NCBI GenBank assembly: GCA_964474445.1
Contig: CAYYSJ010000008.1
Coordinates: 1 to 54,514, forward strand
From: an uncultured Gammaproteobacteria bacterium
GTDB lineage: Bacteria; Patescibacteriota; Microgenomatia; Levybacterales; UBA12049
DNA: 54,514 bases
Direction: 5' to 3'
The notes under the pieces were generated by a model. It saw nothing but the letters and a program-made list of their open reading frames with translations. It did no database searches and was not told the origin of the DNA. The translations under genes were made by a program, and so were the position numbers. Positions 4,723-45,841 of this stretch are shown in pieces (position 1 is the first letter of the stretch; every line of letters starts with the position of its first letter).

Positions 4723-5259
4723 ATGAAAGTAGTTTGCGTTATGGTCTCCTCCTTGAATGGGAAAATAACAAATGGCACAGATCCTCATATCTACACATGG
4801 ACTTCCAAAGAAGACCAAGATCATTTTTTTTCACTTATCGAACACGCATCATGTATCATCATGGGACGAAATACCTATGAACAGGCTAAAGATATTATGA
4901 AACACAAAGAAGGACGACTTCGTGTCGTTTTAACTTCTACTCCTGACCAATTCCAAGGGGAGACAATTCCTGGCCAACTCGAATTTACCAACGAATCTCC
5001 CTCCAAACTTCTTACCAGACTAGCAGAAAAAGGGATTCAAGAAGCACTTTTGGTTGGAGGAGCTACAACCAACACGGCGTTTTTGCAAGAAAACTGTATT
5101 GATGAACTGTGGCTTACCGTCGAACCAATTATCTTTGGCACAGGTACTCCCCTTTTTACAGAAGATATTTTAGAAAAAAGACTCATGCTACAGAACATTG
5201 AAAGATTAAATAATAAAGGCACACTATTTTTGCAGTATACATTTCTAAAGCAGTTCTAG
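4723..5259 (+). CDS. RibD C-terminal domain / dihydrofolate-reductase-like reductase
   Basis: MKVVCVMVSSLNGKITNG...IIMGRNTY...LLVGGATTN...LTVEPIIFGTG matches the RibD_C/DHFR-like fold pattern. The ATG at 4723 is preferred over the TTG at 4708. Confidence 0.75.
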   Translation: MKVVCVMVSSLNGKITNGTDPHIYTWTSKEDQDHFFSLIEHASCIIMGRNTYEQAKDIMKHKEGRLRVVLTSTPDQFQGETIPGQLEFTNESPSKLLTRLAEKGIQEALLVGGATTNTAFLQENCIDELWLTVEPIIFGTGTPLFTEDILEKRLMLQNIERLNNKGTLFLQYTFLKQF

Positions 5260-6186
5260 CTGCTTCTCATTTTCTGTTTTTTCCTCTTTATTCTCTATCT
5301 GTCGAATAGATTTTTTTGGAGCTTCAGGTGCAAAACCCAATCTTTTCTTTAATGAGTTAAATCCAAAAGGTTCAAATGCTTGAAGAAATTTTTCTTTGGT
5401 AAAGTTACGAACAGATGCTTTCTCAAGCTCTAAATGAACAGGTGCGTCTAAATGAATTGTTGCCAATGATTTGCAAAGACTTGCTGCTTCTGCATCTTTA
5501 GCCAATTTGTCAGCAATCTCAGGCTTCACATCTGCCAAATGGGTATACAAATTTTCCAGAGTCTCAAACTGCTGTAAAAGTCCTGCTGCTGTTTTTGGTC
5601 CGATCCCAGCAACACCTGGATAGCCATCAGACTGATCCCCTACAAGTGCCTTGTAATCAATAAATTGAGACGCCTTAACTCCATATTTTTCCTCAACAGC
5701 TTTCTCATCCATAATCACAGATTTTGTAATACCCGTTATTGGCATCAACACTTTTACTACTCCATTCACCAGTTGGAGTAAATCTCTATCTCCTGTCACA
5801 ATCATTGTCTCCAAACCTTTTTCTTTTGATTCTTTTGATAAAGTTCCTATTAAATCATCTGCTTCATACCCTTCAACGCCATAATGTGGGACACCCAAGG
5901 CATCAAGCGAATCATACAGCCTTTGGACTTGAGGAACCAAATCATCAGACATTTTTGGTCTATTTGCATGGTATCCCGCATACATATTCATTCGGAAGGT
6001 TGGTGCTCCCCTATCAAAACAGATAGTTACATAATCTGGCTTTACCTCATCGAAAAGCTTTATCAGCATGGCATAAAATCCATAAATCGCATTCACAATA
6101 TTTCCATCTTTATCAGTAAATGGTGGATAGGCATGAAATGCTCGGTGAAGAATGGCATTCCCATCAATAAGGAGTAATTTTTGCAT
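5245..6186 (-). CDS. 5'-3' exonuclease (stand-alone Pol I N-terminal/FEN-like domain)
   Basis: MQKLLLIDGNAILHRAFHA...VTGDRDLLQL...GDQSDGYPGVAGIGPKTA are the classic 5'-3' exonuclease and H3TH motifs. Start set at 6186: a TATACT -10 box ends 6 nt upstream. Confidence 0.85.
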   Translation of the reverse strand: MQKLLLIDGNAILHRAFHAYPPFTDKDGNIVNAIYGFYAMLIKLFDEVKPDYVTICFDRGAPTFRMNMYAGYHANRPKMSDDLVPQVQRLYDSLDALGVPHYGVEGYEADDLIGTLSKESKEKGLETMIVTGDRDLLQLVNGVVKVLMPITGITKSVIMDEKAVEEKYGVKASQFIDYKALVGDQSDGYPGVAGIGPKTAAGLLQQFETLENLYTHLADVKPEIADKLAKDAEAASLCKSLATIHLDAPVHLELEKASVRNFTKEKFLQAFEPFGFNSLKKRLGFAPEAPKKSIRQIENKEEKTENEKQLELL

Positions 6187-6206
6187 AGAGTTAGTATAGC
6201 AAATTA

Positions 6207-6231
6207 GAAAAGCTGGGGCAGGCAGCTTTTC
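6207..6231 (-). terminator. intrinsic terminator GAAAAGCTG-cctgccc-CAGCTTTTC
   Basis: 9-bp stem with a 7-nt loop, followed on the minus strand by TAATTT. It lies directly after the stop of the 6261..6542 ORF. Confidence 0.55.
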
Positions 6232-6260
6232 AAAAGACAATAAAATGAATTTAACGATTA

Positions 6261-6542
6261 TCATCCGTTGCCATTTCTATTGTCATCACTATGTGGAGCT
6301 GGTGGATGTCCATGCCTATCAATGTAGGTTTGATAAGCCCAATCTGGATAACCATGGTCTCCTCTTTCATGAACATCTCTATCTTGTTGCTCTTGCTCGG
6401 GAGTATAGTTATTTCCGTGTGTTGCAGGATCTTGATGTGCTCGCATCACATCTCCTCTTCTTCTCATTATTGTAGGAGAAGATAATGTTGTCAAAACATT
6501 TTGTCTTACTTCTCCACCTGCCAAAACTTGTAATCGTGCCAT
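6261..6542 (-). CDS. hypothetical small His/Arg/Asp-rich protein (93 aa)
   Basis: ATG at 6542 is preceded by GAAAGGAGGTGATATGA (strong Shine-Dalgarno sequence). It has its own promoter and terminator. No family recognised. Confidence 0.55.
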   Translation of the reverse strand: MARLQVLAGGEVRQNVLTTLSSPTIMRRRGDVMRAHQDPATHGNNYTPEQEQQDRDVHERGDHGYPDWAYQTYIDRHGHPPAPHSDDNRNGNG

Positions 6543-6572
6543 TCATATCACCTCCTTTCTTTTTGTTGGAAA

Positions 6573-6616
6573 AGTCTAAGACTGGAGGCTATAATAAGCA
6601 ATGCAAAAGAGATATG
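6573..6616 (-). promoter_or_regulatory. promoter TTGCTT-17-TAGACT plus conserved upstream box (copy 1)
   Basis: Minus strand: -35 at 6601-6596 and -10 at 6578-6573. The 24-nt box 6593-6616 matches 7168-7191 at 20 of 24 positions. Confidence 0.5.
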
Positions 6617-6652
6617 AATCACTATTTCTATAAAAGTTACTCTTGCTACGTT

Positions 6653-6676
6653 AAGAGCCGGATTTTTCCGGCTCTT
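6653..6676. terminator. hairpin AAGAGCCGG-ATTTTT-CCGGCTCTT
   Basis: 9-bp perfect stem immediately downstream of the 6705..7115 ORF. The T-run is on the plus strand, so direction is ambiguous. Confidence 0.4.
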
Positions 6677-6704
6677 TATTTTCTTTATTTTTTTACAGAA
6701 AACT

Positions 6705-7115
6705 TTATTTCCCTTTTTCATCGAAGTGTTTCTGCAACATTTCTTCTGCAGCCCAATTGGCTGCATCCCCTTCTGTGTCATAAGGTTTACTCTCGTGCTC
6801 CTGAGCGACAAAGATTAAACCTCGACGACGATTGGCGATTGGACTTGGGCCTGTTTGATCATCATCTGGTCCTGGCGGAACATATGCTTCTGAAACATAT
6901 AAGGCAGCACTAACATGACCTCCACCTGTTGCTCTTTCTTTGAGTGGTCCAGTTGCTCTTCCTTCGCGACTTGCTCTAAATCCAGTTGATCCTGGTTCGT
7001 GTGGTGCTGGATTTGTTGGTTCTGGATTAGGCCCTTCACCTGGTCCCCAAGATAAAAGAGCGACTTGTCTTGCTGCAGGCAAGCTACCTCTTGTTGCTTC
7101 TAATGTTCTTAACAT
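6705..7115 (-). CDS. hypothetical Gly/Pro-rich small protein (136 aa, MLRTLEATRGS...)
   Basis: ATG at 7115 is preceded by AGAAAGGAGGTGATAACA. The ORF-track GTG at 7124 lies inside that Shine-Dalgarno sequence. Overlapping alternative frames were rejected. Confidence 0.55.
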   Translation of the reverse strand: MLRTLEATRGSLPAARQVALLSWGPGEGPNPEPTNPAPHEPGSTGFRASREGRATGPLKERATGGGHVSAALYVSEAYVPPGPDDDQTGPSPIANRRRGLIFVAQEHESKPYDTEGDAANWAAEEMLQKHFDEKGK

Positions 7116-7332: not shown

Positions 7333-7647
7333 TTAACGTGTTCTACGAAGAACTCGTCGCGCTAAATTTGTCACTGCGTGTACTGCACATTCAACTAAAC
7401 TAGGACCAAAATGAACACCATTTAATGTTCTGGCACGCCCCATCTGTTTTAGGGCATCTCTGTTAACATCACTCACCCATGCAGCGTTTGCAAGAGGTCC
7501 AGCATGTATATCTACACCATGTATTGCAGCAGGCAGCCTATCTTGCATCATTTGTTGTGCTCGTCTCTGCAATACATTAGCAGCAATTCCTTGAATTTCA
7601 GGACTAGGTAATCCAGACACTCTTTCTTCAGGGTATTCATAGCTCAT
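7333..7647 (-). CDS. hypothetical protein (104 aa, MSYEYPEERVSGL...)
   Basis: ORF starts 9 nt after a perfect consensus promoter. No family recognised. Confidence 0.55.
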   Translation of the reverse strand: MSYEYPEERVSGLPSPEIQGIAANVLQRRAQQMMQDRLPAAIHGVDIHAGPLANAAWVSDVNRDALKQMGRARTLNGVHFGPSLVECAVHAVTNLARRVLRRTR

Positions 7648-7656
7648 AGTAGTTGG

Positions 7657-7685
7657 ATTATAAAAGGAAATGGTTACTGTGTCAA
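7657..7685 (-). promoter_or_regulatory. perfect consensus promoter TTGACA-17-TATAAT (leaderless)
   Basis: Minus strand: TTGACA 7685-7680, 17-nt spacer, TATAAT 7662-7657, 9 nt to the ATG at 7647. Confidence 0.7.
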
Positions 7686-7727
7686 GCTTTTCCCAATAGG
7701 TCGAGTAATAACGCTAAGTATTAATCC

Positions 7728-9608
7728 CTAGCCTCTTACTTTTGCGGCAGCAATTTTGGGAAGGAATGGAGAAATAACTTTTGGTTTTTGTCCCAATAAT
7801 GCTATAAAGTCATCTGCCTCCATTGTTTCTTTCTTCATCAGCGCTTCAGCCAATTTATCCATTTCTTTTCGTACTGATTTCAGCGCCTTGATTGCATTAT
7901 CATACGCAGCATCAAGGAGTCTTTTCACTTCTGCATCAACTTTAGAACGCATATCTGGAGAAACTTCATATGTCTCATAACTAAATCTTTTATCTGGCGC
8001 TAAATTAACTGGGCCCAACTCACTCATTCCCATTTCCAAAACCATTTGTCTTGCAACACTGGTTGCTTTTTCAATATCATTTGCTGCTCCTGTGGAGATT
8101 TCACCAAAAACAACTTGTTCTGCAGCTCGACCTCCCATCATCATAGCAAGCTGTTCCATCAAATAGGTCCGAGTCTCATGCAAATGCTCTGCTGGCTCTG
8201 TCATTGTATGCCCAAGACTCATACCACGACTTACAATAGAAATTCGGTGAATTGGATCCATATGTGGCATGTACCAGCTTACTAACGCATGACCAGCTTC
8301 ATGGTATGCAGTCATTCGCTTATCTTCATCTGATTGGAGTCGTTTTTTCTCAGGTCCTAATTTCACTTTAGTTGCAGACTCCTCAATATCTGACATTGTA
8401 ATTGCTTTATGGCTAAGTCGTGCTGCTCCAATTGCTGCTTCATTGAGCATGTTTTCTAAGTCCGCTCCTGAAAATCCAACAGTACGTTGTGCAACTTTAT
8501 CCCAATCTACCTTTGAATCAAATGGCTTGCCTTTTGCATGAATTGCCAGGATTGCTTTTCTGCCTTCCTTGTCTGGCATATCCAAACTTACCCTTCTATC
8601 AAATCTCCCTGGTCTCACAAGTGCTGGATCTAAAACATCAGGTCTATTGGTTGCGGCCATAACAACAATTTGCTCATTTTGGGTAAATCCATCCATCTCA
8701 ACTAAAATCTGATTGAGCGTTTGCTCCCGCTCATCATGACCTCCCATAAGACCCATACCTCGTTGACGCCCAATTGCATCAATTTCATCAATAAAGATAA
8801 TTGCAGGTTGTGCTTTTTTCGCAGTGTTAAACAAATCTCGAACACGACTTGCCCCAACACCAACAAGCATCTCCATGAATTCAGATCCTGCCATTGAGAA
8901 GAATGCAACACCTGCCTCTCCTGCTGTTGCACGGGCTAAAAGTGTCTTTCCAGTACCTGCAGGACCAATCATCAGAACCCCTTTTGGTGTGCGTGCACCC
9001 ATTGCTTTATACTTTCCAGGATTCTTCAAGAAATCAACAATTTCCGTCAGCTCTTGCTTTGCCTCATCCACTCCTGCGACATCAGAGAAAGTTACCTGTG
9101 GGGTGTCTTTTGTGATTTGTTTTGCTGAAGATTTTCCAAAAGAAAAAATATTCTCTTGTGCACCTCGTGCTTGTCTGAAAATAAAATAAAAGAAAGCAAC
9201 CATCAGAAGAATTGGCAAAACACTAGAAATGAGGTTAATCCAACTCCCTATACTACTTTCGTCCTTCACCATGACTTTTGTCTTATCTAAAGATACTCCT
9301 GCGTCTTTGAAAAGTGTGTAAACATTTGCATTTGCTTCTTTCGTTGTGTCAACAACTTTTCCACCTTTTTCAGTTGCTTGAATTTTTGTATCACTTACCG
9401 TAATGCTTTGCACTTTTCCATCTCGTACATCTTGGACAACTTGTGAAAGAGGTACTGATTGGTTACTTTCAAATCCAGAATTAAAGCCCATGAAAACGAA
9501 AAAGAGTAAAAAAAGCAAAAATCCGTAGAGAAGAATATTTTTCCACGAGAAGTTAAACTTTACTTTATATATCCTTTTGGAGTTTTTCTTTGGAGTATTT
9601 CCTGCCAT
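7728..9608 (-). CDS. ftsH: ATP-dependent zinc metalloprotease FtsH
   Basis: Walker A GPAGTGKT, Walker [10 protein letters not shown], second region of homology, HEAGH zinc site, and N-terminal transmembrane segments. Start set at MAGNTPKK (9608). Confidence 0.95.
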
Positions 9609-37182: not shown

Positions 37183-38271
37183 ATGAACGAACAACTTCTC
37201 CCTCCCGCTGCTCCGATAGCACTTCCAGAAACCCCACCTACTGAAGAAGCATCATCCCCAAAAAGTCTTGATATCCCACAATGGCCAGATCTTGACTATC
37301 AAAAAATTGCATCTGAGGCTTCAATAAGACCCTTCAAATCTCGATGGGGCAAGCCTATTAACCTTTCCCTCATAAGGTTTTATGATTGGATTTTAGGAGG
37401 AAAGGGAAAATCCTTTCAAGAAATTGCCACCGATACTATTTATGAAAGTCTTACTGTAAGACCTGAGATACTTGATCAAAAAGAAAGTGGCACAAGGATA
37501 GATATATCTCGTTCAGAATCTCTGAAAGAAAGCGCACATCATTTTGAATCGACAATCGAATTAGAAAATCAAAGGCATGCTCCTCACGAACAAATCTCAT
37601 TAGAGAATATTGATATTAATGGAAAATCACACCAACACGATGGATTTCTTGTACATCACTCAGACAGAAAAGAAGGCGATGATGCAGTAACAGCAAGAGC
37701 ATATATCACTGTTGACAGGGAAAGAGTGTCACAAATACCTGAACGTTATGTTACTTTACTGTTCCGGTTAAAAGAAGCGGGTGTAGAATGTTCTTCTAAG
37801 GCATTGGACCCCTTTGGAGCTAAATTTAGCACAACAGATATTGTTTTCTATCTTTCTTCTTCACAAATAGATATGGCTAACTTAGTATTCACAACATTCC
37901 TAGCAGAACATCCTGAATTTGGAAAAGGACATACTAAAGCAGGTATACCTAGCGAACAAGAGGGGCTTACTTGGTCGCGTGAACCTAATCAAAATCAGAG
38001 AGAACTCATAAGAGAAATCCGAGGGGAGAAGCAATTTATTTCCTTTAATGAGTTAATAGCATGCATGGCAATGCCTGCCTACTTACACAGACTCCATGAA
38101 TTTTATCAAAAAAAAGGAAAACATAAGGACGCTGCAAGAATTAAACAAGAGCTTGAAAGGGTTGAGGCAATAATCAAAAGATATAAATCTAAAGAAGCAG
38201 ACACTACTCAGGCAGAAAATTTAGATCATGCTTCTGTTCCTATTGCCCCACAAACCTCCACAGACATATAA
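37183..38271 (+). CDS. hypothetical protein (362 aa)
   Basis: Long ORF starting at a near-consensus leaderless promoter. I cannot assign a family with confidence. Confidence 0.6.
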   Translation: MNEQLLPPAAPIALPETPPTEEASSPKSLDIPQWPDLDYQKIASEASIRPFKSRWGKPINLSLIRFYDWILGGKGKSFQEIATDTIYESLTVRPEILDQKESGTRIDISRSESLKESAHHFESTIELENQRHAPHEQISLENIDINGKSHQHDGFLVHHSDRKEGDDAVTARAYITVDRERVSQIPERYVTLLFRLKEAGVECSSKALDPFGAKFSTTDIVFYLSSSQIDMANLVFTTFLAEHPEFGKGHTKAGIPSEQEGLTWSREPNQNQRELIREIRGEKQFISFNELIACMAMPAYLHRLHEFYQKKGKHKDAARIKQELERVEAIIKRYKSKEADTTQAENLDHASVPIAPQTSTDI

Positions 38272-38338: not shown

Positions 38339-38479
38339 TTAGTTCTCTCCAGGTTTCCATCCACAGTCCGGACAAACAGACATTGTCCCATTTTGCACCA
38401 AAATCACCTGTTCAGATGTTGGTTCCCATCCACATCCCCTACATTTTATTTTAAAACATTCTTGGCAATCTTGTTTCAT
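38339..38479 (-). CDS. 46-aa zinc-ribbon mini-protein (below the ORF-track cutoff)
   Basis: MKQDCQECFKIKCRGCGWEPTSEQVILVQNGTMSVCPDCGWKPGEN has CxxC plus two CxxCGW(E/K)P repeats. It is preceded by TTGGCA-16-TACAAC, then 7 nt to the ATG. Confidence 0.45.
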   Translation of the reverse strand: MKQDCQECFKIKCRGCGWEPTSEQVILVQNGTMSVCPDCGWKPGEN

Positions 38480-38518
38480 ATGTATTGTTGTATGACTTTA
38501 CTGAGAACTGCCAAGATT

Positions 38519-39886
38519 CTAACAAGCAAGTTCTGGATGTTCTTTAATAAAGTCTACTTTTGTGTAATGACAATGGGGACACTCATCTCCAACAGGGGGT
38601 TTTGCTCGCTGTTCACATTTAGGGCACTGAAACCAACTTGATTCATTTTCCTGCGTTCCACTGGCAAGTCGTCCGCTTCTATACCCACCCATAGTCATAA
38701 CAGATGTGGACTCATTTCGTGAAGATGTTCCTCCTCCTGCGCATCCTTTGATTTTTTGTACCTCTTCAAATACCCTCCCAAATGACATAGATTGCTGGAG
38801 AAGAGCCATTGGAACTAGAAGTTTCATCTTATCCACATCGCATCTCGTTGCTATCAATTGTTTGTTAATCTGCATAGCATTCTGCTCAGTTAAGAATACT
38901 TGAGAAACCCGAAGAAGGGTTGCGGCAACTGCTTTCTGCAACTGAAGACGACCATGTCCACCTTCCGCAACATACTCCATAAACTCTGACACATATTGTT
39001 GTGTTTGTTGATTAAAGTTATACAACGCTTCACCCTTAGCAACTCCCTGGTATACTTCATCCCACGCTCTTCCTTCAAAGGCATTATCTTCACCACGATA
39101 ATGAAGTTTTGTTTGTCTCATAAGAGAGATTACATCATCAACACTTTGTATATCGTCGCGTCTTTCATTTGGGTTGATGAGCGCAATCGTTTTTACAAAG
39201 TCTTGCAAACTAGCATCAAAGGGCAGCTCTTTTCCTGTTAATGTTTTAAGCATTGCGCGATACTCTTTGTTAGTAAAATCTGTTTTTATCGTAGACCCAA
39301 CAATCTCATTACCTTTTTTCTGCATAACAAAGAAAAATGAGGTAAGATATTCAATTGCTTTTCCGTCATCTGTAGTAAGACCACTCGGACCTTTAGGAGA
39401 AGGGACAACAGCAATTGCTCCATCTTTTGTCTTGGGATCAAGGAAAAAATCCTGAATCCGTCTCATATTTTCAACGACTACACCCCCTCTTTCTCGTGGG
39501 TCTATCATGTCCACTGCGCTACGATTGCCATACAGTGGGTCAACAAGTTCTTTAGTTCCATCAGGCTTTGTATGAACTTTGTATTTATAAACAAATACCA
39601 ATCCCTTGGATAAGTATTCTAAACAAAACCCTAAGATATCTCGTTTTGTTTGTTGCGCCCATACATCTAACTCTTCTGGCTTACCTTCAGCACCTTCTGG
39701 CAGTAAGTGCATTTGGGTATTCATAAGAAATCCAATGCCATGAAACTTGTACCAATCTTTATTTAATCCATGAGTTTTTGGTTTGTTGTCAAACTCTTGG
39801 ATATGCCATGCTAAGGATTGAAGTCTAGATCCTTCATGTCTTATCTGTTCTCTTGGTATTGGTTGTAAAACTGCTCCTTTTTCCAT
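38519..39886 (-). CDS. uncharacterised 455-aa protein with a C-terminal zinc ribbon
   Basis: Long uninterrupted ORF in AT-rich DNA. The C-terminus reads CPKCEQRAKPPVGDECPHCH. AGAGGAG Shine-Dalgarno sequence is 7 nt upstream. No family recognised. Confidence 0.65.
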   Translation of the reverse strand: MEKGAVLQPIPREQIRHEGSRLQSLAWHIQEFDNKPKTHGLNKDWYKFHGIGFLMNTQMHLLPEGAEGKPEELDVWAQQTKRDILGFCLEYLSKGLVFVYKYKVHTKPDGTKELVDPLYGNRSAVDMIDPRERGGVVVENMRRIQDFFLDPKTKDGAIAVVPSPKGPSGLTTDDGKAIEYLTSFFFVMQKKGNEIVGSTIKTDFTNKEYRAMLKTLTGKELPFDASLQDFVKTIALINPNERRDDIQSVDDVISLMRQTKLHYRGEDNAFEGRAWDEVYQGVAKGEALYNFNQQTQQYVSEFMEYVAEGGHGRLQLQKAVAATLLRVSQVFLTEQNAMQINKQLIATRCDVDKMKLLVPMALLQQSMSFGRVFEEVQKIKGCAGGGTSSRNESTSVMTMGGYRSGRLASGTQENESSWFQCPKCEQRAKPPVGDECPHCHYTKVDFIKEHPELAC

Positions 39887-40033
39887 AAAAAAACTCCTCT
39901 TTTTAATCCGAGGAGCAATAATATATTGCTTCTGCTCGGAAGTCTTTGGGGCTCGGACTTTCCTGACAATACAGGATCACCGTTGCGGCACAGTCAAGGA
40001 ATTGCTTGCACTTCTTCATGAAGGCAGCGCACC
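39887..40033 (-). promoter_or_regulatory. riboswitch-like OFF leader related to the cobalamin element at 43196-43300
   Basis: Shares TGTGCCGCAAC, AAGTCCG and CTTCC(C)GAGCAG blocks with the upstream riboswitch. It ends in the hairpin CTCCTC-N10-GAGGAG + U7, which buries the Shine-Dalgarno sequence. A competing CCGAG/CTCGG helix is possible. Confidence 0.45.
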
Positions 40034-40603
40034 TTATTCACCCATTTTCAATTTATTCCAAATGGTCTCTTTTTTCTTTTCTTTAAAATTGACAAATCTA
40101 CTCATAGTAAATAATAAATCTGAGAGCCTATTGATATATTTAATAAAACTTGGTTCAACAGACTCTTTTTGGGCAAGTTCAGTAATTCGTCTCTCAGCTC
40201 GTCTGGCAACAGTTCTGGCAAGATGCAAGGATGCTCCTGCCTTCCCTCCACCAGGAAGAATAAAGTTTGTAAGCAAAGGCAATTTTTCTGTCATCGCATC
40301 AATTTGTTTCTCAAATTCCAAGACCCTGTTGTCAAAATAGCTAGTGATTGGAAGCCTATTGTTAGTACTAGGATTAGCAAGCATTGAACCAACTTCGAAT
40401 AAATCTTTTTGGATTTGTTCAAGTTCTTTTCTAAGAACTGCATACGCATTAGCAGATATATGCGATAGTGCCACACCAAGTATAGAATTCAGTTCATCTA
40501 TTGTTCCGTATGTTTCAACTCTTATATGGTTTTTAGGAACTCGAGAACCGTCCATAAGCGACGTTTGCCCTTTATCCCCTGTCTTAGTATAGATTTTACT
40601 CAT
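40034..40603 (-). CDS. pduO: ATP:cob(I)alamin adenosyltransferase, PduO type
   Basis: MSKIYTKTGDKGQTSL...ETYGTIDELNS...ILPGG...LHLARTVARRAER are hallmark PduO/MMAB motifs. Confidence 0.9.
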   Translation of the reverse strand: MSKIYTKTGDKGQTSLMDGSRVPKNHIRVETYGTIDELNSILGVALSHISANAYAVLRKELEQIQKDLFEVGSMLANPSTNNRLPITSYFDNRVLEFEKQIDAMTEKLPLLTNFILPGGGKAGASLHLARTVARRAERRITELAQKESVEPSFIKYINRLSDLLFTMSRFVNFKEKKKETIWNKLKMGE

Positions 40604-40617
40604 AGATCATTTGTAGA

Positions 40618-41118
40618 CTATTGTGCTGCGTTAAATCGGAAACCTTTCACAATATGTAAGACGGTCTCATATCCACCAAATAATACTGTAGTGTAAAAAA
40701 GATCTCCCACTATAGTGTTCCTAAAGAATGGTAATGCCATGACATATGCCTCTATCATTCCTGAAAACGTTTTTGGATATAACGATGTTACATACCAAAA
40801 GGTAAAATTCGTAAGAAGGAAGAACAACAACGAAGAGACTAATGATGCTCCAATAACGGTTTGAATACTTTTATGGGAATGTAACCATAGTCCTATAAAT
40901 CCAGTAATTAGAAAACTAAGATATACAAATGGTGTACTAGCACTAAATCCAAGGAAAAAGTCCGAGAGAACCATTGCTGCAAGTGGAACAATCAACGCAT
41001 ATTTTTTATTCAGATAGGTTCCTCCAAAAAGTGCCATAGCAGCAATTGGTGCAACGTTTGAAATATGAGGGAGCAAGCGTAAAAGAGCTGCTCCAATGAT
41101 TAAAAATAATGCAAACAT
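40618..41118 (-). CDS. small polytopic membrane protein, putative substrate-capture (S-component-like) B12 transporter
   Basis: About 5-6 transmembrane helices. The transporter call rests on operon context only, plus a resemblance to DUF6580-type proteins as I recall them. Confidence 0.45.
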   Translation of the reverse strand: MFALFLIIGAALLRLLPHISNVAPIAAMALFGGTYLNKKYALIVPLAAMVLSDFFLGFSASTPFVYLSFLITGFIGLWLHSHKSIQTVIGASLVSSLLFFLLTNFTFWYVTSLYPKTFSGMIEAYVMALPFFRNTIVGDLFYTTVLFGGYETVLHIVKGFRFNAAQ

Positions 41119-41121
41119 AGC

Positions 41122-42516
41122 TTACTTTTTTCTCCTTTTCAAGGTATTGGTAGCATAGAACAAAAGGAAAACTATGCCAAGAGTAGTTACTATAACAAAT
41201 GCTATCGTATTTTTTCGATACACTGTTTGTGTAACCGCTTTTTGATCTTGCGCTCCCAATACTTCTGTTGTCGGACTTGCCTCAGGTGTGAGATTTGTGT
41301 CTGTAGCCAAGACAAGAGCACCTGTAACAGGTGCAGGAGAGATAACAAGTGAAATTGGTTGCCTTGAGCTTATTGATGAGGTTATGGTTGGAGTTGCCAC
41401 CTGTATAGATGTTGGCATTGGAGTAACCGTCAGAACAACTGTTGGAGTAGGTGTACTACTTGGCGTAGGACTGACTACCGATGGAGATGGTGTCGTTGCA
41501 CTCGAAGTTTGCGAGCTTGTATTGAAGCTCTGAATAATCCATCCTTTCCCGCTTAACCCAATTAACGCGTGAGCTGTTGTTGTCGAGTTAGAAGCATACC
41601 CTGTGCATGCAAATGTCGTTGGATCCCACTGATTACAGGCAGTAAATCCTCCATCAGTTGGTGATTGTTGAGATAATAGCCATGTGCGTGCATTACCTGT
41701 TTCGTCTGAGTTTTGCATTGCCAATACATTTAAAGCCATCAAAGCCCATGTCGTAGAGTCAGAGTCTGGTGTTGTCGTCCACGGGTTTGTGTCATACAGG
41801 AATCCCCCACTTTTGTCTTGAGTACTTAATAGGTATGTTTTTGCTTTGTTTAGTCCAGTATCTAACAATCCATTAACTACACCGTAATTTTTGGCAGCAA
41901 CTAACGCTTGTATTGCTGCAGCAGTATCATTTCCATCGCTTCCTGCTGTTGTTGAGTATCCAAAACCACCATCGGCATTTTGGTGAGCAAGAATAAATGA
42001 AAGACTATCCGTTAATTCAGCATCTGAGGTGGCAACTCCACTTGAGACAAGTGCCATAACTCCAAACCAATCATCATTCTCAGTAGTAGGATCTCCAATT
42101 TGGTGGTTGTTATAATATGGAGCTGACTGAAGTGTAGTCACATAGTTGATCCCTCCAAAGCTATAGGGATTTTGTCCACTTGCTACTATCGCAAGAGTCC
42201 ATTTTTCCCATTCAGTTACAGATGAAGATGTTGTGGGATGATTGTTCTGCAAATACGTTATTACTGACGGAGCGTGTGTTGAAGTTTTTACCGTTGACAG
42301 ATCTATCCCATTTGCTGAAAAAGCAACCGCAGCCCACGGAGACGCATCGCCAGTTGAGCCTCCCGTTATCTGTCCTGTTGCCCCGTTGAGTTGGGTTCCT
42401 AAGTAATTTATCCCCTTCCCTATTGCAGCATCTGTTTTCGCATCTGCATACACATGTAAGGCACTCAGGTTGAGTATGAAGAATGTCAATAAAACGATCA
42501 GCGCTACTACTCTCAT
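41122..42516 (-). CDS. secreted prenyltransferase/squalene-oxidase-repeat protein with a C-terminal membrane anchor
   Basis: Signal peptide, repeated QxxDGGF motifs (QNADGGFGY, QDKSGGF, QSPTDGGF), Ser/Thr/Pro linker and a terminal transmembrane helix + RRKK. Start at MRVVAL (42516). Confidence 0.7.
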   Translation of the reverse strand: MRVVALIVLLTFFILNLSALHVYADAKTDAAIGKGINYLGTQLNGATGQITGGSTGDASPWAAVAFSANGIDLSTVKTSTHAPSVITYLQNNHPTTSSSVTEWEKWTLAIVASGQNPYSFGGINYVTTLQSAPYYNNHQIGDPTTENDDWFGVMALVSSGVATSDAELTDSLSFILAHQNADGGFGYSTTAGSDGNDTAAAIQALVAAKNYGVVNGLLDTGLNKAKTYLLSTQDKSGGFLYDTNPWTTTPDSDSTTWALMALNVLAMQNSDETGNARTWLLSQQSPTDGGFTACNQWDPTTFACTGYASNSTTTAHALIGLSGKGWIIQSFNTSSQTSSATTPSPSVVSPTPSSTPTPTVVLTVTPMPTSIQVATPTITSSISSRQPISLVISPAPVTGALVLATDTNLTPEASPTTEVLGAQDQKAVTQTVYRKNTIAFVIVTTLGIVFLLFYATNTLKRRKK

Positions 42517-42520
42517 ATGG

Positions 42521-43105
42521 TTATCCAAACTTCCAAACAATACTGTCTCCTGAGTTGGGTGTATACAAAGAACAGCCTTGAGGAGACTTTCCGTTGACTG
42601 TTACTGTCCAATTGTTTTGATACCCATTTACTTCTTTTATATAAGCACTATGGAGAGATGACATATAAGAATAATCAATAGTTACGGACCGTACTTTCCC
42701 CTCATTCTTCGCCTCAGTAAGATTGTCACAAAGATTATTCCCCGAATTAAGAGTAACTGTAAAAGTATTTGTTCCATCTGGCTCAATAATCTGCATCGTG
42801 ACAGTAGGTTTAGGTGCCTGGCTTGGTTGAGAAGTTGGTGGTGTTGATTGAGATACAGAAACTGGGGTCATTGAGATTGGTATCACTGGAACCGTTGGAG
42901 GTGTTGTAACAGCAACATGTTGTATCTTTTTTACTATCTCCGTAGGGGTCGGTGGTGGTGTTAGTTTCTTTGTTAAGCCTGCTACAGTAGTTGTTTGCTT
43001 TATCCCCAAAAAATGTTGGGGCGAGATAACAATGCCAACTGCGAGTAAAAAACACAGTATTGCTCCAAAGAGCGAAAAGAATATTTGTAACTTTTTTGTG
43101 TTCAT
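42521..43105 (-). CDS. DUF4430-domain (transcobalamin-like) surface protein
   Basis: Signal/anchor, Pro/Thr linker and the C-terminal pattern IKEVNGYQNNWTVTVNGKSPQGCSLYTPNSGDSIVWKF, typical of DUF4430. Confidence 0.7.
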   Translation of the reverse strand: MNTKKLQIFFSLFGAILCFLLAVGIVISPQHFLGIKQTTTVAGLTKKLTPPPTPTEIVKKIQHVAVTTPPTVPVIPISMTPVSVSQSTPPTSQPSQAPKPTVTMQIIEPDGTNTFTVTLNSGNNLCDNLTEAKNEGKVRSVTIDYSYMSSLHSAYIKEVNGYQNNWTVTVNGKSPQGCSLYTPNSGDSIVWKFG

Positions 43106-43164: not shown

Positions 43165-43195
43165 AAAAAAAATCCCTCTTGATTCCCAAGAAGGA
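43165..43195 (-). terminator. riboswitch expression-platform terminator UCCUUCUUG-GGAAU-CAAGAGGGA + U8
   Basis: 9-bp stem (one G-U pair) followed by eight U. Its 5' arm can instead pair with UUCCCGAG of the B12-box region (anti-terminator). Confidence 0.65.
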
Positions 43196-43300
43196 TACAA
43201 AAAAATCCTGCTCGGGAAGATTTGCTTGTTTAGTTTTCTGGGTTTACAGTTGCGGCACACCCACGGACTTTCACCGTGATTGCCTAAACAGGCATACTGA
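43196..43300 (-). promoter_or_regulatory. cobalamin riboswitch aptamer
   Basis: The minus strand has AGGCAAUCACGGUGAAAGUCCGUGGGUGUGCCGCAACUGUAAACCC...CUUCCCGAGCAGG. This matches the remembered core (GGGAA, GGUGxAAxUCC hairpin, GCxGCxACUGU, B12 box CCCGAxGxxx with P1 pairing CCUG/CAGG). Confidence 0.65.
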
Positions 43301-43345
43301 TTATATTTTCTCTCTTGTTATTGCTCAATGCACATCAGTACTGCA

Positions 43346-45841
43346 TTAGCATTCGCTGTGTCCACAGCTATAGCATTTCTTACAACCGTCTTCGTACGCA
43401 AATGCACTCACTCCACACTCTGGGCAAATATCGTACAAATTTGTTTTTGCACTTTCCTGAGCAAATAACGACTCTTGTCCAACAACAGGAGCTTGTGTTT
43501 CTTCTTCATGAACAACATGTGTTTCTGCTGTTGATTCTACAGATGGAACAACGCCATCTGTTAAAACTTGCTTAATAACATTTCTATCTTCCACTTTCCC
43601 ATTGACTGCGAATGAGAAATGCTGTGCCAATATTTTCGCGATAGCATCTGGAAGAGATCGCACTTTGTTTATACCAAAGCCGACGCTTCGTGATCCACCA
43701 ATACCGGTCAGTTGTGCAACAACTTGTCGTATTCTCTCTCGTGGAGCAAGTGCACCATTGAGACGAAGATTAAGAGAAATCATTCTACCTAATGCGTCTG
43801 CCATTGCAGCAACATCAGAGCCTGATTTACCAATGGTAATAAATACTTCAAATGGCTGGTTGTTTTCGGTGTGATTGATAGTAATAAAGGTTTCGCCAAC
43901 AGGTGTTTCTGTTTTGTATGTTGATCCATCAATTCTTTGTGGTCTTGCAACAACTGGCATAATTGCAGGAAGTGGTGCTTGCACTGGTTGCTCAACAGGC
44001 TTTGCTTCCTCTTTTTTCTTTTCATCAACTCGCTCCAAAACTCCTTGTCTACTCCCATCTCTCATATATGTCACTCCTTTCAGACCGTAATCATATGCTG
44101 CCATATAGAGTGTCTTCACATCTTCAACAGTGTGTGCATTTGGTGCATTCACGGTTTTTGAAATAGAAGAATCAATATACTCCTGAGCAACTGCTTGTAC
44201 TTTTACATGCTCAAGTGGAGTAAGGTCATTTGCTGAGACAAAATAAGCTGGTTTCTCTTGCCCTTCATGTGATTTTCTCCAGAGATCGTAAAGGGGATGG
44301 TACACCATGTCTTCCCCTCCTCTCCAGCGTCTCAAGAATGAGAATTCATATACTGGTTCCACTCCTGAGGATACTCCTGATACAAGAGATGTTGTTCCTG
44401 TAGGTGCAATTGTGAGCAAAACTGCGTTGCGAATACCATTCTTTGCAATTTTTTGTTGAATTGCCCTAGGAAGATTTTGGATATGATACCCTTTTAAGTA
44501 TTTTGCTTTTTGGAATTGAGGAAATGCTCCCTTTTCGTTTGCAATCTCTGCTGATGCCTCATATGCTTCGTTTCGAAGTGTTTCAAAAATTTTATGGATG
44601 ACAGGGAGTGACTCTTCAGACCCATATGGTAGATGCATTTTAATGAGTGCATCTCCTAAGCCCATGATGCCAAGGCCCGTACGTCGAATTTGTTTTGCTA
44701 TTTCTTCATTCTCTTTAAAGAAGTAGTATGTTTTATCAATCACGTTGTCTAAGAAACGCATGGCAACCCGGACATCTTTCCCAAAGGCTTCATAATCAAA
44801 CCAGCCGGGCTTATCATTCGCCAAATCTGCATCTCTCACATAGACTGACAGATTCATTGCTCCCAAGTTACAGACTGCCCATGGACCAAGAGGCTGCTCG
44901 CCGCATGGGTTAGTAGCGACAAGTCTTTCAAAATACCAGGTATTGCTTCTTTTGTTGGATCTTTCCATAAAGTGAAGTCCTGGTTCAGCAGATCTCCATG
45001 CTGCAGTGCAAATAAGATTCCACAATTCTCGTGCCTTAACTGTTTTGTATACTTTTACTTTCTTTCCTAATGCTCTCCATTGATCAATCTCCCCATTCCA
45101 CTTTTCATCATACTCAGGGTCGTCAATATCAGGATATACCAAATCCCAATCTGCATCTTTTTTCACCGCTTCCATGAATGCATCAGAAATACAAACAGAA
45201 AGGTTTGCTCCGTTAATTTTTGAAAGGTCTTCTTTAACAGTAATAAATTCCTCAACATCTGGATGCCAATCCCACAACATGAGCATCGTAGCACCTCTTC
45301 GTGTACCTCCCTGTTGCACAACGTCATGGGTTGCATAGGAGAAAAGTCCAGCCCAGGTAACAGGACCTGAGGAGGTTCCATTTACTTTCTTCACTCGTGC
45401 GCCCCGAGGCCGAAGAGAGGACAAGTTAAGGCCTACGCCCCCGCTTCGGGACTGTATTTCAACGAGCTGCTTAAGTGATTCTAAGATTCCATCTCGGGAA
45501 TCTTTTGGACTTGGAATAACAAAACAATTAAAGTAGGTTACTTGATAGTCAGTCCCTGCTCCAGAGAGAATTCTTCCTCCTGGAACAAATTTGAAGTCAT
45601 TCATGAGGTCATAAAATTTATTTTCCCAAAGCTTTCTATTTTTCGGTAGTTCGTTTTGGGCAATACCCCACGCAACTCTTCTCCACGTTTCTTCAGGGGT
45701 TGTTTCAGTGAGGTTTCCCTCTTTATCTTTGAGAGCGTATCTATCTAAGAAGACTTTCTCTCGTAAAGTTCCAACGAAATCTTTTTGTAATGTTTGTTTT
45801 TTTGTATCACTCATAAATATTGGCTGAATTTGTTCCAGCAC
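43346..45841 (-). CDS. nrdJ: adenosylcobalamin-dependent ribonucleotide reductase (class II)
   Basis: Typical class II N-terminus (FLDRYALKD), catalytic NPCGEQPL, TIAPTGT, and a C-terminal Cys-rich tail (CPECG...CKKCYSCG). Start is GTG at 45841 or ATG at 45814. Confidence 0.9.
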   Translation of the reverse strand: MLEQIQPIFMSDTKKQTLQKDFVGTLREKVFLDRYALKDKEGNLTETTPEETWRRVAWGIAQNELPKNRKLWENKFYDLMNDFKFVPGGRILSGAGTDYQVTYFNCFVIPSPKDSRDGILESLKQLVEIQSRSGGVGLNLSSLRPRGARVKKVNGTSSGPVTWAGLFSYATHDVVQQGGTRRGATMLMLWDWHPDVEEFITVKEDLSKINGANLSVCISDAFMEAVKKDADWDLVYPDIDDPEYDEKWNGEIDQWRALGKKVKVYKTVKARELWNLICTAAWRSAEPGLHFMERSNKRSNTWYFERLVATNPCGEQPLGPWAVCNLGAMNLSVYVRDADLANDKPGWFDYEAFGKDVRVAMRFLDNVIDKTYYFFKENEEIAKQIRRTGLGIMGLGDALIKMHLPYGSEESLPVIHKIFETLRNEAYEASAEIANEKGAFPQFQKAKYLKGYHIQNLPRAIQQKIAKNGIRNAVLLTIAPTGTTSLVSGVSSGVEPVYEFSFLRRWRGGEDMVYHPLYDLWRKSHEGQEKPAYFVSANDLTPLEHVKVQAVAQEYIDSSISKTVNAPNAHTVEDVKTLYMAAYDYGLKGVTYMRDGSRQGVLERVDEKKKEEAKPVEQPVQAPLPAIMPVVARPQRIDGSTYKTETPVGETFITINHTENNQPFEVFITIGKSGSDVAAMADALGRMISLNLRLNGALAPRERIRQVVAQLTGIGGSRSVGFGINKVRSLPDAIAKILAQHFSFAVNGKVEDRNVIKQVLTDGVVPSVESTAETHVVHEEETQAPVVGQESLFAQESAKTNLYDICPECGVSAFAYEDGCKKCYSCGHSEC

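Follow-up and report, generated by a model that had tools for sequence, protein, structure and literature searches.

Patescibacteria are ultra-small, host-dependent organisms unable to make B12, and riboswitch-guided discovery has repeatedly revealed missing transporters and enzymes of cofactor metabolism. In the 54.5-kb stretch of DNA analysed here (the window), a pduO gene is followed by a gene for an uncharacterised 455-aa protein. The initial annotation interpreted the interval between them as a second corrinoid-type OFF leader and assigned the 455-aa gene to the B12 regulon. Is this leader, designated RS2, indeed a riboswitch, and does it reveal the function of the genes behind it? On the evidence of sequence comparison, RS2 is very probably a functional, operon-internal class-II/AdoCbl-II cobalamin (corrinoid) OFF riboswitch preceding a unit of the 455-aa gene and a gene for a 46-aa protein.

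The locus and the extent of RS2

The main features of the locus are:

43300..43328, minus strand: promoter-like site TTGAGC-17-TATAAT just upstream of RS1 (consensus match only)
43172..43294, minus strand: RS1, comprising an AdoCbl-II aptamer, P13 and an 11-bp terminator with U8 (RF01689, 40.4 bits; R1, 48.3 bits)
40034..40603, minus strand: pduO, encoding a PduO-type ATP:cob(I)alamin adenosyltransferase (Pfam PF01923, 212.5 bits); the final 16 nt of the gene are also part of the RS2 aptamer
40049..39887, minus strand: RS2, comprising aptamer, P13 and an expression platform that extends to the nucleotide immediately preceding the AUG, delimited by the R1 match, a sub-threshold RF00174 match, sequence and folds
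38519..39886, minus strand: 455-aa gene, member of an uncharacterised Patescibacteria superfamily
38339..38479, minus strand: gene for p46, a 46-aa zinc-ribbon mini-protein with two CxxCGW motifs, the co-conserved partner gene

RS2 lies within a cluster of nrdJ, DUF4430, toroid, DUF6580 and pduO genes, and this context is the same in all related loci, with the 455-aa family gene always downstream of pduO. RS1, whose terminator is at 43196..43172, is located downstream of nrdJ and upstream of the DUF4430, toroid, DUF6580 and pduO genes. The two elements are four genes apart (two to four in relatives) and are contiguous only in loci L017 and L022.

The intergenic region measures 147 nt (40033..39887, minus strand), as originally described, but the element is not confined to it. 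The aptamer begins at about 40049, 16 nt inside pduO, so that the stop codon of the upstream gene falls inside RS2; the part within pduO consists of the P3 strand and J3/4 and includes the stop UAA (40036..40034). In most loci the aptamer likewise starts 0–20 nt after the pduO stop codon or inside it.

A covariance model, R1, was trained only on the leaders of other genomes, with the window left out. It matched RS2 over the full length of the model (40049..39929, 68.2 bits, E 2.8e-13), and its second match in the 54.5 kb was RS1 only (48.3 bits). With the Rfam model RF00174, RS2 scored 17.2 bits (E 0.032) in a match spanning the pduO stop codon, which is below the gathering threshold of 31.5 bits, and it was missing from the gathering-mode scan. 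This low score results from the insertion of about 25–30 nt in L4. Orthologous leaders exceed the Rfam gathering scores, with 33.2 bits for RF00174 in L002 and 50.1 bits for RF01689 in L010.

Architecture and conservation of the aptamer

The following elements of the aptamer were recognised:

39947..40044, minus strand: P3 closing helix, UGGG (40044–40041) with CCCA (39950–39947)
39995..40036, minus strand: P4 hairpin, UAAGG (40036–40032) with CCUUG (39999–39995), the 5' strand holding the pduO stop UAA (40036–40034)
39984..39992, minus strand: P5 and L5, UG/CA around L5 UGCCG (39990–39986), the proposed kissing partner
39954..39982, minus strand: P6, CGG (39982–39980) with CCG (39956–39954), with the inserted hairpin UCCUG-UAUUGU-CAGGA (39976–39961)

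The architecture thus comprises P3, P4/L4, P5/L5, P6/L6 and J6/3, where AAGUCCGAG forms a B12-box-like region, and additional hairpins are present within L4 and L6. The compact P3–P6 core is typical of class-II cobalamin riboswitches (RF01689, AdoCbl-II, formerly "AdoCbl-variant"; clan CL00101; e.g., env8Cbl-IIa), and an orthologous leader matches RF01689 with 50 bits. The RS2 type shares with this class an L4 T-loop (UGUAAUU type), an L6 of the UAAAGU type and a B12-box remnant AAGUCAGAU in J6/3, and with env8 an L5-L13 kissing loop (predicted for RS2) and a bulge in L13. It differs in L5 (UGCCG instead of the consensus UCCCG), in lineage-specific hairpins in L4 (the window, L037 and L042) and L6, in its operon-internal position overlapping the preceding stop codon and, for the window copy, in scoring below the Rfam thresholds. 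P1 and J1/3 are not identifiable in the RS2 sequence, which also sets it apart from the class, although J1/3 is absent from some Cbl-II members too (PMC6158498).

L4 of RS2 is 32 nt long (40031–40000) instead of the usual 7 nt. The inserted hairpin of about 25 nt folds on its own (-10.1 kcal/mol) between the retained canonical flanks UG...AAUU, and in the R1 alignment the extra 30 nt of L4 appear as an insert. Unrelated hairpins are inserted at exactly this site in L037 and L042. These sequences argue for L4 as an expansion point that class-II cobalamin riboswitches may tolerate. The hairpin UCCUG-N6-CAGGA followed by AAGUC was present as described before and represents a peripheral insertion in P6/L6; such an extension occurs in some orthologues, with a different sequence, and is lacking in others. 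Many orthologues have a minimal L6 (UAAAGU) and match RF01689, while the window copy carries simple hairpins in both L6 and L4. If L4 and L6 of this class accept hairpin insertions, some copies are invisible at Rfam thresholds. The suggested likeness of the P6/L6 hairpin to the GGGAAGUC element of long class-I riboswitches proved loose, the RS2 core being class-II-like (AdoCbl-II, RF01689 type).

The four sequence blocks reported to be shared with RS1 are of unequal value. TGTGCCGCAAC (two matches in the window against 0.00 expected) and CUUCC(C)GAGCAG (two against 0.10) occur only in RS1 and RS2. AAGUCCG (seven against 3.3) and AAGCAAU/AGGCAAU (ARGCAAU; 42 against 27) are chance 7-mers, since their positions are not homologous, falling in the P4/L4 hairpin of one leader and in J6/3 of the other. 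The apparently different block order, for which RS2 had been called rearranged, was due to these two words alone: R1 aligns RS1 and RS2 end to end and collinearly.

Conservation was assessed in 14 loci obtained by exact-protein look-ups and in 27 more leaders from a DNA-pattern genome scan. For L016–L047 the search pattern fixed P13 and the platform, so only the aptamer part is independent evidence. Protein-pattern scans yielded no locus among genome contigs and one among metagenome contigs. The leader precedes the family gene in 11 of the 14 protein-ascertained loci; in the other three (L007, L008 and L013) it is absent, and the family gene abuts or overlaps pduO under RS1. The literature search revealed no prior description of cobalamin riboswitches in Patescibacteria/Saccharibacteria.

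The MAFFT alignment A4 (30 copies) was not fitted to the structure and excludes three rows with L4 insertions that were mis-registered in A3. In it, 98.6% of cells are paired, 10 of 19 pairs show compensatory changes, and the covariation score is 0.412, compared with at most 0.097 in slid controls; none of 500 shuffles reached the observed value. In a 63-copy alignment, 17 of 23 pairs are compensatory. All four helices of the four-way-junction core P3–P6, which contains GCCGCAAC (P5/L5) and an AGUCAG-type B12 box, covary. The outer pair of P3 occurs as C-G, U-A, A-U and G-U (in 30 and 63 copies); the P4 pairs are 96–99% paired, with four of five compensatory in A4 and all five in A5; P5 is 100% paired, with covariation at both of its pairs, and P6 is likewise 100% paired, its middle pair covarying (U-A, C-G, G-C). 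L5 is near-invariant in the 63 copies, the variant in L004 being UGACG. The leader is therefore conserved before orthologues with strong structural covariation, which bears out both the corrinoid-type leader and the placement of the 455-aa gene in the B12 regulon.

These data leave little room for regarding the interval as a plain intrinsic terminator with a spacer, in which the blocks shared with RS1 are leftovers of a local duplication. Two blocks are in fact common to RS1 and RS2, but the Rfam-passing orthologues, the R1 match, the compensatory changes in P3, P4, P5 and P6 across dozens of genomes, and the existence of two distinct, ancient series of leaders contradict this explanation and make it scarcely tenable. 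The window copy in itself calls for more caution: its function is not guaranteed, because about 25 nt are inserted in the L4 T-loop and the Rfam threshold is failed. In class-II structures the L4 T-loop, normally a highly conserved 7-nt element, docks on L6 (PMC6158498), and an insert that breaks this docking would turn RS2 into a decaying relic, leaving the 455-aa gene constitutive or controlled by read-through from RS1. Both the Rfam score far under threshold and a terminator weaker than those of orthologues fit such decay. However, the remaining conserved nucleotides of the core are in place, as are L5, L13, P13 and the platform, the R1 score is high, the L4 flanks are preserved around an independently folding hairpin, and the same site holds unrelated hairpins in two other lineages, so that loss of function appears unlikely and a working riboswitch is the preferred reading.

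Expression platform and predicted regulation

Between the aptamer core and the start codon, RS2 contains:

39929..39942, minus strand: P13 hairpin CUUC-CGAGCA-GAAG, with L13 CG[A]GCA (39938–39933) complementary to L5 and A39936 bulged
39907..39940, minus strand: anti-terminator/anti-sequestor helix, UCCGAG (39940–39935) with CUCGGA (39912–39907), around the spacer hairpin GCAAU...AUUGC (39929–39915)
39887..39915, minus strand: terminator/SD-sequestering hairpin, CUCCUC (39915–39910), a 10-nt loop, GAGGAG (39899–39894, Shine-Dalgarno) and U7 (39893–39887), followed by the AUG at 39886

The stem of P13 covaries between the RS1 and RS2 series, while L13 is near-invariant, with A, C or U at the bulge position. 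L5 and L13 can form five pairs with one bulge, compatible in 99.7% of cases in the 63 copies; four of these pairs never vary, and the single compensatory event is in L004. Both the CUCCUC-N10-GAGGAG hairpin with U7 directly before the AUG and the competing CCGAG/CUCGG helix, already pointed out in the initial annotation, are present and conserved. The terminator/sequestor (-11.6 kcal/mol, z -2.73) recurs in every leader, and its CUCCUUGG/CCAAGGAG variants are compensatory; in the window its stem has 6 bp and is weaker than in orthologues. It was not flagged by a simple terminator scan, in which loops were limited to 8 nt as against 10 nt here. When the platform is folded in isolation, the anti-terminator has the lowest free energy (-13.7 kcal/mol, z -3.94), and its complementarity is preserved in orthologues, including CUUGGA variants via G-U pairs. 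The platform thus consists of a GC-containing SD hairpin with a U tract, mutually exclusive with an alternative helix.

This arrangement is consistent with the established OFF mechanism, in which an L5-L13 kissing loop, P13, an anti-terminator and a terminator/SD sequestor act together. In the presence of a bound corrinoid, L5 (UGCCG) would kiss L13 (CG[A]GCA) and lock P13 (CUUC/GAAG), so that CUCCUC could pair with GAGGAG in a hairpin which, with U7 behind it, would stop transcription and bury the SD, which is 7 nt from the AUG. Without ligand, UCCGAG, comprising the P13 5' strand and part of L13, would pair with CUCGGA and disrupt this hairpin, enabling expression. The same logic has been dissected experimentally in the repressing corrinoid riboswitch of Priestia megaterium metE (PMC10327014). 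In that riboswitch the terminator pairs with the 3' side of P13, whereas in RS2 the 5' strand of P13 and L13 (UCCGAG) are predicted to be used. The RS2 terminator, in addition, holds the SD and abuts the AUG, so both transcription and translation are predicted to be blocked. Ribosomes ending at the pduO stop codon within the aptamer could disturb its folding.

RS2 would act as a second checkpoint after RS1 on transcripts reading through pduO. Like the tandem and multiple riboswitch arrangements reviewed in PMC9481103 and PMC12452182, RS1 and RS2 appear to be two complete riboswitches of the same ligand class in series on one transcript, RS1 using a terminator and RS2 located next to the RBS. 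Unlike in those systems, four genes separate them, which would place promoter-proximal and distal genes under different control. The locus may therefore represent a natural case of two same-ligand riboswitches in series within one operon.

RS2 could also lead an independent unit with its own promoter in the 3' end of pduO, RS1 and RS2 perhaps differing in corrinoid threshold or selectivity. The two series are distinct, anciently diverged and both maintained across Patescibacteria, RS1 has its own strong terminator, and the selectivity for AdoCbl versus MeCbl varies widely among class-II riboswitches (PMC6158498). However, a sigma-70 scan revealed no promoter-like site upstream of RS2, although Patescibacterial promoters are poorly known; the proximity of the aptamer to the pduO stop in most loci leaves no intergenic room, and in three loci the family gene is directly fused to the pduO cistron. 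An independent unit is accordingly rather improbable, and RS2 is better regarded as an operon-internal element.

The 455-aa protein family and its 46-aa partner

The 455-aa ORF contains the CPKC...CPHC ribbon noted previously. The motifs of its family include ER-G, SP-G-SG, GCAGGG, a C-terminal CxxC...CxxC ribbon and a terminal Cys. The ORFs behind these leaders form one fast-evolving superfamily (hhalign 98.4% and 99.1%) of 365 clusters at 50% identity. It is confined to Patescibacteria and has no detectable relative of established function. The 455-aa protein gave no match in Pfam, NCBIfam or PDB, the latter searched with the single sequence and with a profile, and Pfam scans of 63 diverse family members gave nothing informative. 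Its AF2 model (pLDDT 81) had no Foldseek match at E<1e-3 in PDB or BFVD. Resemblance to a PAS/GAF/LOV-like fold was not significant (Foldseek E>3e-3, TM at most 0.39) and was rejected. A weak resemblance to eL43-type zinc ribbons was confined to the C-terminal ribbon (E 8e-4). No earlier description of the gene family was found in the literature search.

In work by Rodionov et al. in 2003, B12 transport and salvage genes were reportedly assigned by means of riboswitches. Here, too, a B12 element conserved upstream of an unknown gene assigns it to the B12 regulon, as does its location among pduO, ECF-type and transcobalamin-like (DUF4430, toroid) uptake genes and nrdJ; unlike in those cases, the regulated protein occurs only in Patescibacteria and lacks a detectable relative of known function. 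RS2 marks this superfamily and the co-conserved p46, both uncharacterised, as new B12-handling candidates. In Patescibacteria, their genes adjoin that of the adenosyltransferase and that of NrdJ, the sole obvious consumer of B12. The initial annotation proposed corrinoid processing or trafficking, or a B12-sparing function, as candidate roles of the 455-aa protein; we infer that both proteins take part, with PduO and NrdJ, in the salvage or handling of corrinoids. That they constitute a new Patescibacteria-specific corrinoid-handling system, with a fold unlike any solved structure, is proposed tentatively, at somewhat less than an even chance. Scavenged cobamides destined for PduO and the AdoCbl-dependent NrdJ might be reduced, dealkylated, remodelled or chaperoned by such a system. 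The locus is thus a concrete candidate for how Patescibacteria process scavenged corrinoids, and a corrinoid-handling role, if true, would supply a step so far lacking from B12 salvage in these bacteria.

The synteny of the family gene points not only to B12, because the genes for p163 and a DUF8128 ATPase also always adjoin it. With RS2 still a real riboswitch, the 455-aa and 46-aa genes could be unrelated to corrinoid chemistry and serve a module of p163 and this TrwB-like ATPase, to which B12 would signal only nutritional state or host contact. Conservation of the gene order family gene, (p46), p163, DUF8128 ATPase equals that of the association with pduO, no terminator was detected after p46 in L004, L005 and L012, and the fast evolution of the protein is atypical of a cofactor enzyme. 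In the window, however, a convergent 362-aa gene lies between p46 and p163/ATPase, and in L017 and L022 a family-like ORF with its RS2 leader has moved beside nrdJ, DUF6580 and pduO, away from p163/ATPase. Together with the translational coupling of the family gene to pduO in three loci, this makes service to the ATPase module a minor possibility beside corrinoid handling.

The earlier suggestion that the 46-aa CxxCGW protein belongs to the same regulon agrees with its conservation: p46, with its two CxxCGW motifs, is encoded in the same B12-riboswitch-controlled unit, and tblastn located it directly downstream of the family gene in over 20 loci. In L044, the family protein itself carries a fused p46-like module.

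Gene layout around the RS2 leader

The RS2 leader lies between the pduO gene and the gene for a 455-aa protein, within the following array.

Features of the window from nrdJ to the convergent gene (position, strand, feature, basis)
45841..43346, minus: nrdJ, 831 aa, RNR barrel and TSCPD (domain search)
43328..43300, minus: promoter-like site TTGAGC-17-TATAAT between the nrdJ stop and the RS1 aptamer (promoter scan)
43294..43223, minus: RS1, the first cobalamin riboswitch, RF01689 AdoCbl-II, 40.4 bits (Rfam)
43196..43172, minus: RS1 terminator, 11 bp and U8 (terminator scan)
43105..42521, minus: DUF4430 protein (domain search)
42540..41122, minus: prenyltransferase-like toroid protein (domain search)
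41118..40618, minus: DUF6580 protein, ECF-S-like (domain search)
40603..40034, minus: PduO-type adenosyltransferase, PF01923, 212 bits (domain search)
40033..39887, minus: 147-nt gap between pduO and the 455-aa ORF (sequence)
39886..38519, minus: 455-aa ORF (ORF reading)
38479..38339, minus: 46-aa ORF (ORF reading)
37183..38271, plus: 362-aa ORF, convergent (ORF reading)

The good promoter-like site after nrdJ and the strong RS1 terminator place nrdJ outside riboswitch control and the uptake and adenosylation genes inside it. DUF4430 is a domain of the transcobalamin C-terminus (PMC4350170). The convergent 362-aa gene, without a match in Pfam or NCBIfam, forms the 3' boundary of the RS2-controlled unit in the window. 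It separates the 46-aa gene from p163 (a conserved gene downstream of the 455-aa gene in relatives) and the DUF8128 ATPase gene, breaking a gene row that every related locus keeps uninterrupted.

RS2 as a cobalamin riboswitch

The RS2 RNA extends the well-known cobalamin riboswitch family by a new, divergent member. In a permissive Rfam search it matched Cobalamin (RF00174) at 40112..39928, extending into pduO, with 17.2 bits (gathering score 31.5); the score is low because L4 contains a hairpin of about 25 nt, UG-C[GCUGCC...GCAAGC]-AAUU (fold -10.1 kcal/mol). To assess conservation, 40 proteins homologous to the 455-aa protein were gathered (Saccharimonadales, Levybacteria and Patescibacteria; none with a Pfam domain), and contigs encoding them were examined. 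The gene order nrdR, nrdJ, (uptake genes), pduO, family gene, small ORF, DUF8128 ATPase is kept down to about 33% protein identity. At Rfam gathering thresholds, L002 (RF00174, 33.2 bits) and L010 (RF01689, 50.1 bits) each show a cobalamin riboswitch with pduO directly before it and the family gene directly after it, the latter locus carrying a further one after nrdJ; the Rfam search proposed in the initial annotation thus succeeds with these orthologous leaders and falls short with the window copy. The same leader was read in the pduO-to-gene spacers of the window, L002, L004, L005, L006, L009, L010, L012, L014 and L015, and the L003 copy is cut by the contig end. The spacer is missing in L007, L008 and L013, where the family gene abuts or overlaps pduO and therefore falls under RS1. 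A platform-motif scan of 185,579 species genomes yielded 32 loci, 27 with the full aptamer core and 4 without it, L024 being cut at the end of the examined stretch.

Covariation was evaluated on a MAFFT alignment of 30 leaders, with the window left out and no structure fitted; 98.6% of cells were paired and 10 of 19 pairs had compensatory changes. The covariation score was 0.412, versus 0.097 for the best slid control, and none of 500 shuffles matched the observed value. The covariance model built from this alignment, R1, matched the window exactly twice, at RS2 (40049..39929, full length, 68.2 bits, E 2.8e-13, with 30 nt taken as L4 insert) and at RS1 (48.3 bits). Over 38 sources it detected 63 copies, with compensatory changes in 17 of 23 pairs, and RS1 and RS2 occurred together in most loci. 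Covarying leader homologues upstream of 455-aa orthologues, which the initial annotation had proposed to look for, are thus found, with abundant compensatory changes.

The leader had been described as rearranged, with its blocks ordered differently from those of RS1. All strings listed in the initial annotation are present in the sequence, and the shared blocks TGTGCCGCAAC and CUUCC(C)GAGCAG are confined to the two leaders (at most 0.1 chance matches expected). The supposed difference in block order was based on AAGUCCG and AAGCAAU/AGGCAAU alone, both ordinary words in the window (7 matches, and 42 for ARGCAAU). AAGUCCG lies in the P4/L4 hairpin of RS1 and in J6/3 of RS2, so these positions are not homologous. 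Under R1 both leaders align collinearly, in one identical element order; RS2 is therefore not rearranged.

Unrelated hairpins also occur at the L4 insertion point in L037 and L042, which suggests that expansion is tolerated there and that the insert is no sign of decay. The extra UCCUG...CAGGA hairpin is real and represents an analogous insertion in L6, present in only part of the orthologues. A 179-nt leader with very long L4 and L6 insertions (L030:4768-4946) precedes a 395-aa ORF missed by the family HMM, without recognisable nrdJ or pduO neighbours.

Expression platform and proposed regulation

All copies carry a hairpin, P13, downstream of the aptamer, with a covarying stem (CUUC/GAAG in RS2, UCC/GGA in RS1, CCUU/AAGG in L023). 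Its loop, L13 (CG-N-GCA), can form five pairs with L5 (UGCCG) around one bulged base, which varies between A, C and U; L5 UGACG and L13 CG[U]UCA of L004 represent one compensatory event. [quoted passage not shown] In the window, the helix UCCGAG (39940-39935)/CUCGGA (39912-39907) folds at -13.7 kcal/mol (z -3.9), and the alternative helix CUCCUC (39915-39910)/GAGGAG (39899-39894), followed by U7 and AUG, at -11.6 kcal/mol (z -2.7). RS2 would bind a corrinoid, form the L5-L13 kissing loop and act as an OFF switch, predicted to affect both termination and Shine-Dalgarno access. The promoter scan found no promoter-like site upstream of RS2, and in most loci the aptamer begins either at the pduO stop codon or within 0-20 nt of it, so RS2 most likely serves as a second checkpoint, acting on transcripts that start at the RS1 promoter and read through.

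A common element, GAGAUUUCUCC...UCGAAAUGACAA, closely precedes the aptamer in the two loci whose pduO-to-RS2 spacer is enlarged (L004:1640-1700, L006:5760-5800); it could be a small repeat, insertion remnant or promoter region. At L017:2243-2486 and L022:143-383, nrdJ is directly followed by a tandem of an RS1-type and an RS2-type riboswitch with about 57 nt between them, upstream of a 504-aa family-like ORF, DUF6580 and pduO; here the RS2 leader has moved along with its gene. A third copy in L022 (5032-5130, minus strand) precedes the DUF4430 and toroid genes. Tandem and multiple riboswitch arrangements are already known in general; in the literature searched, neither patescibacterial cobalamin riboswitches nor the 455-aa protein family are described.

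The 455-aa and 46-aa proteins

The 455-aa protein has no match in Pfam, NCBIfam or PDB sequences. A profile search delineated a family of 365 clusters at 50% identity, with lengths of 400-550 aa throughout; 63 diverse members gave no meaningful Pfam match, and a PDB profile search picked up nothing beyond an eL43-like zinc ribbon. AF2 gave a confident model (pLDDT 81.3, pTM 0.75), for which Foldseek found no neighbour in PDB or BFVD at E<1e-3. Residues E131, R132, S162, G165, G380, C381, C420 and C435 are invariant superfamily-wide. The ORFs that follow leaders ascertained by pattern vary from clear family members to sequences hardly detected by the family HMM, and profile-profile comparison (98.4%, E 5e-15; 99.1%, E 6e-19) shows their homology to the family.

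Over 20 loci have the gene for the 46-aa zinc-ribbon protein, p46, directly behind the family gene. In the L044 family ORF (4990-6687), a p46-like CGWEA...CPxCG module (6493-6609) replaces the C-terminal ribbon, hinting at a domain fusion that links the two proteins; a separate p46 gene still follows (6702-6836). Together, this arrangement and the module point to a conserved two-gene unit as the probable target of RS2. What makes the finding valuable is the gene pair that RS2 singles out. The best guess for its role, a rather doubtful one, is corrinoid handling with PduO and NrdJ; a competing idea assigns the pair to the adjacent module of p163 and the DUF8128 ATPase.

In the L010/L011 lineage only, a gene for a PNPOx-like FMN-binding split-barrel protein, a possible flavin-dependent redox partner, directly follows the family gene and p46 (7615-8091). 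A group I intron (RF00028, 61 bits; L015:12875-13075, minus strand) adjoins a tRNA-rich stretch downstream of the locus. The typically patescibacterial locus also occurs on contigs L014/L041 (CAZCYO010000003.1), L020, L025, L028-L031, L037, L024, L035, L040 and L047, publicly titled 'uncultured Gammaproteobacteria', Limnocylindrales, Acidiferrales, Sulfotelmatobacter or Actinomycetota; these MAGs have probably been mislabelled taxonomically.
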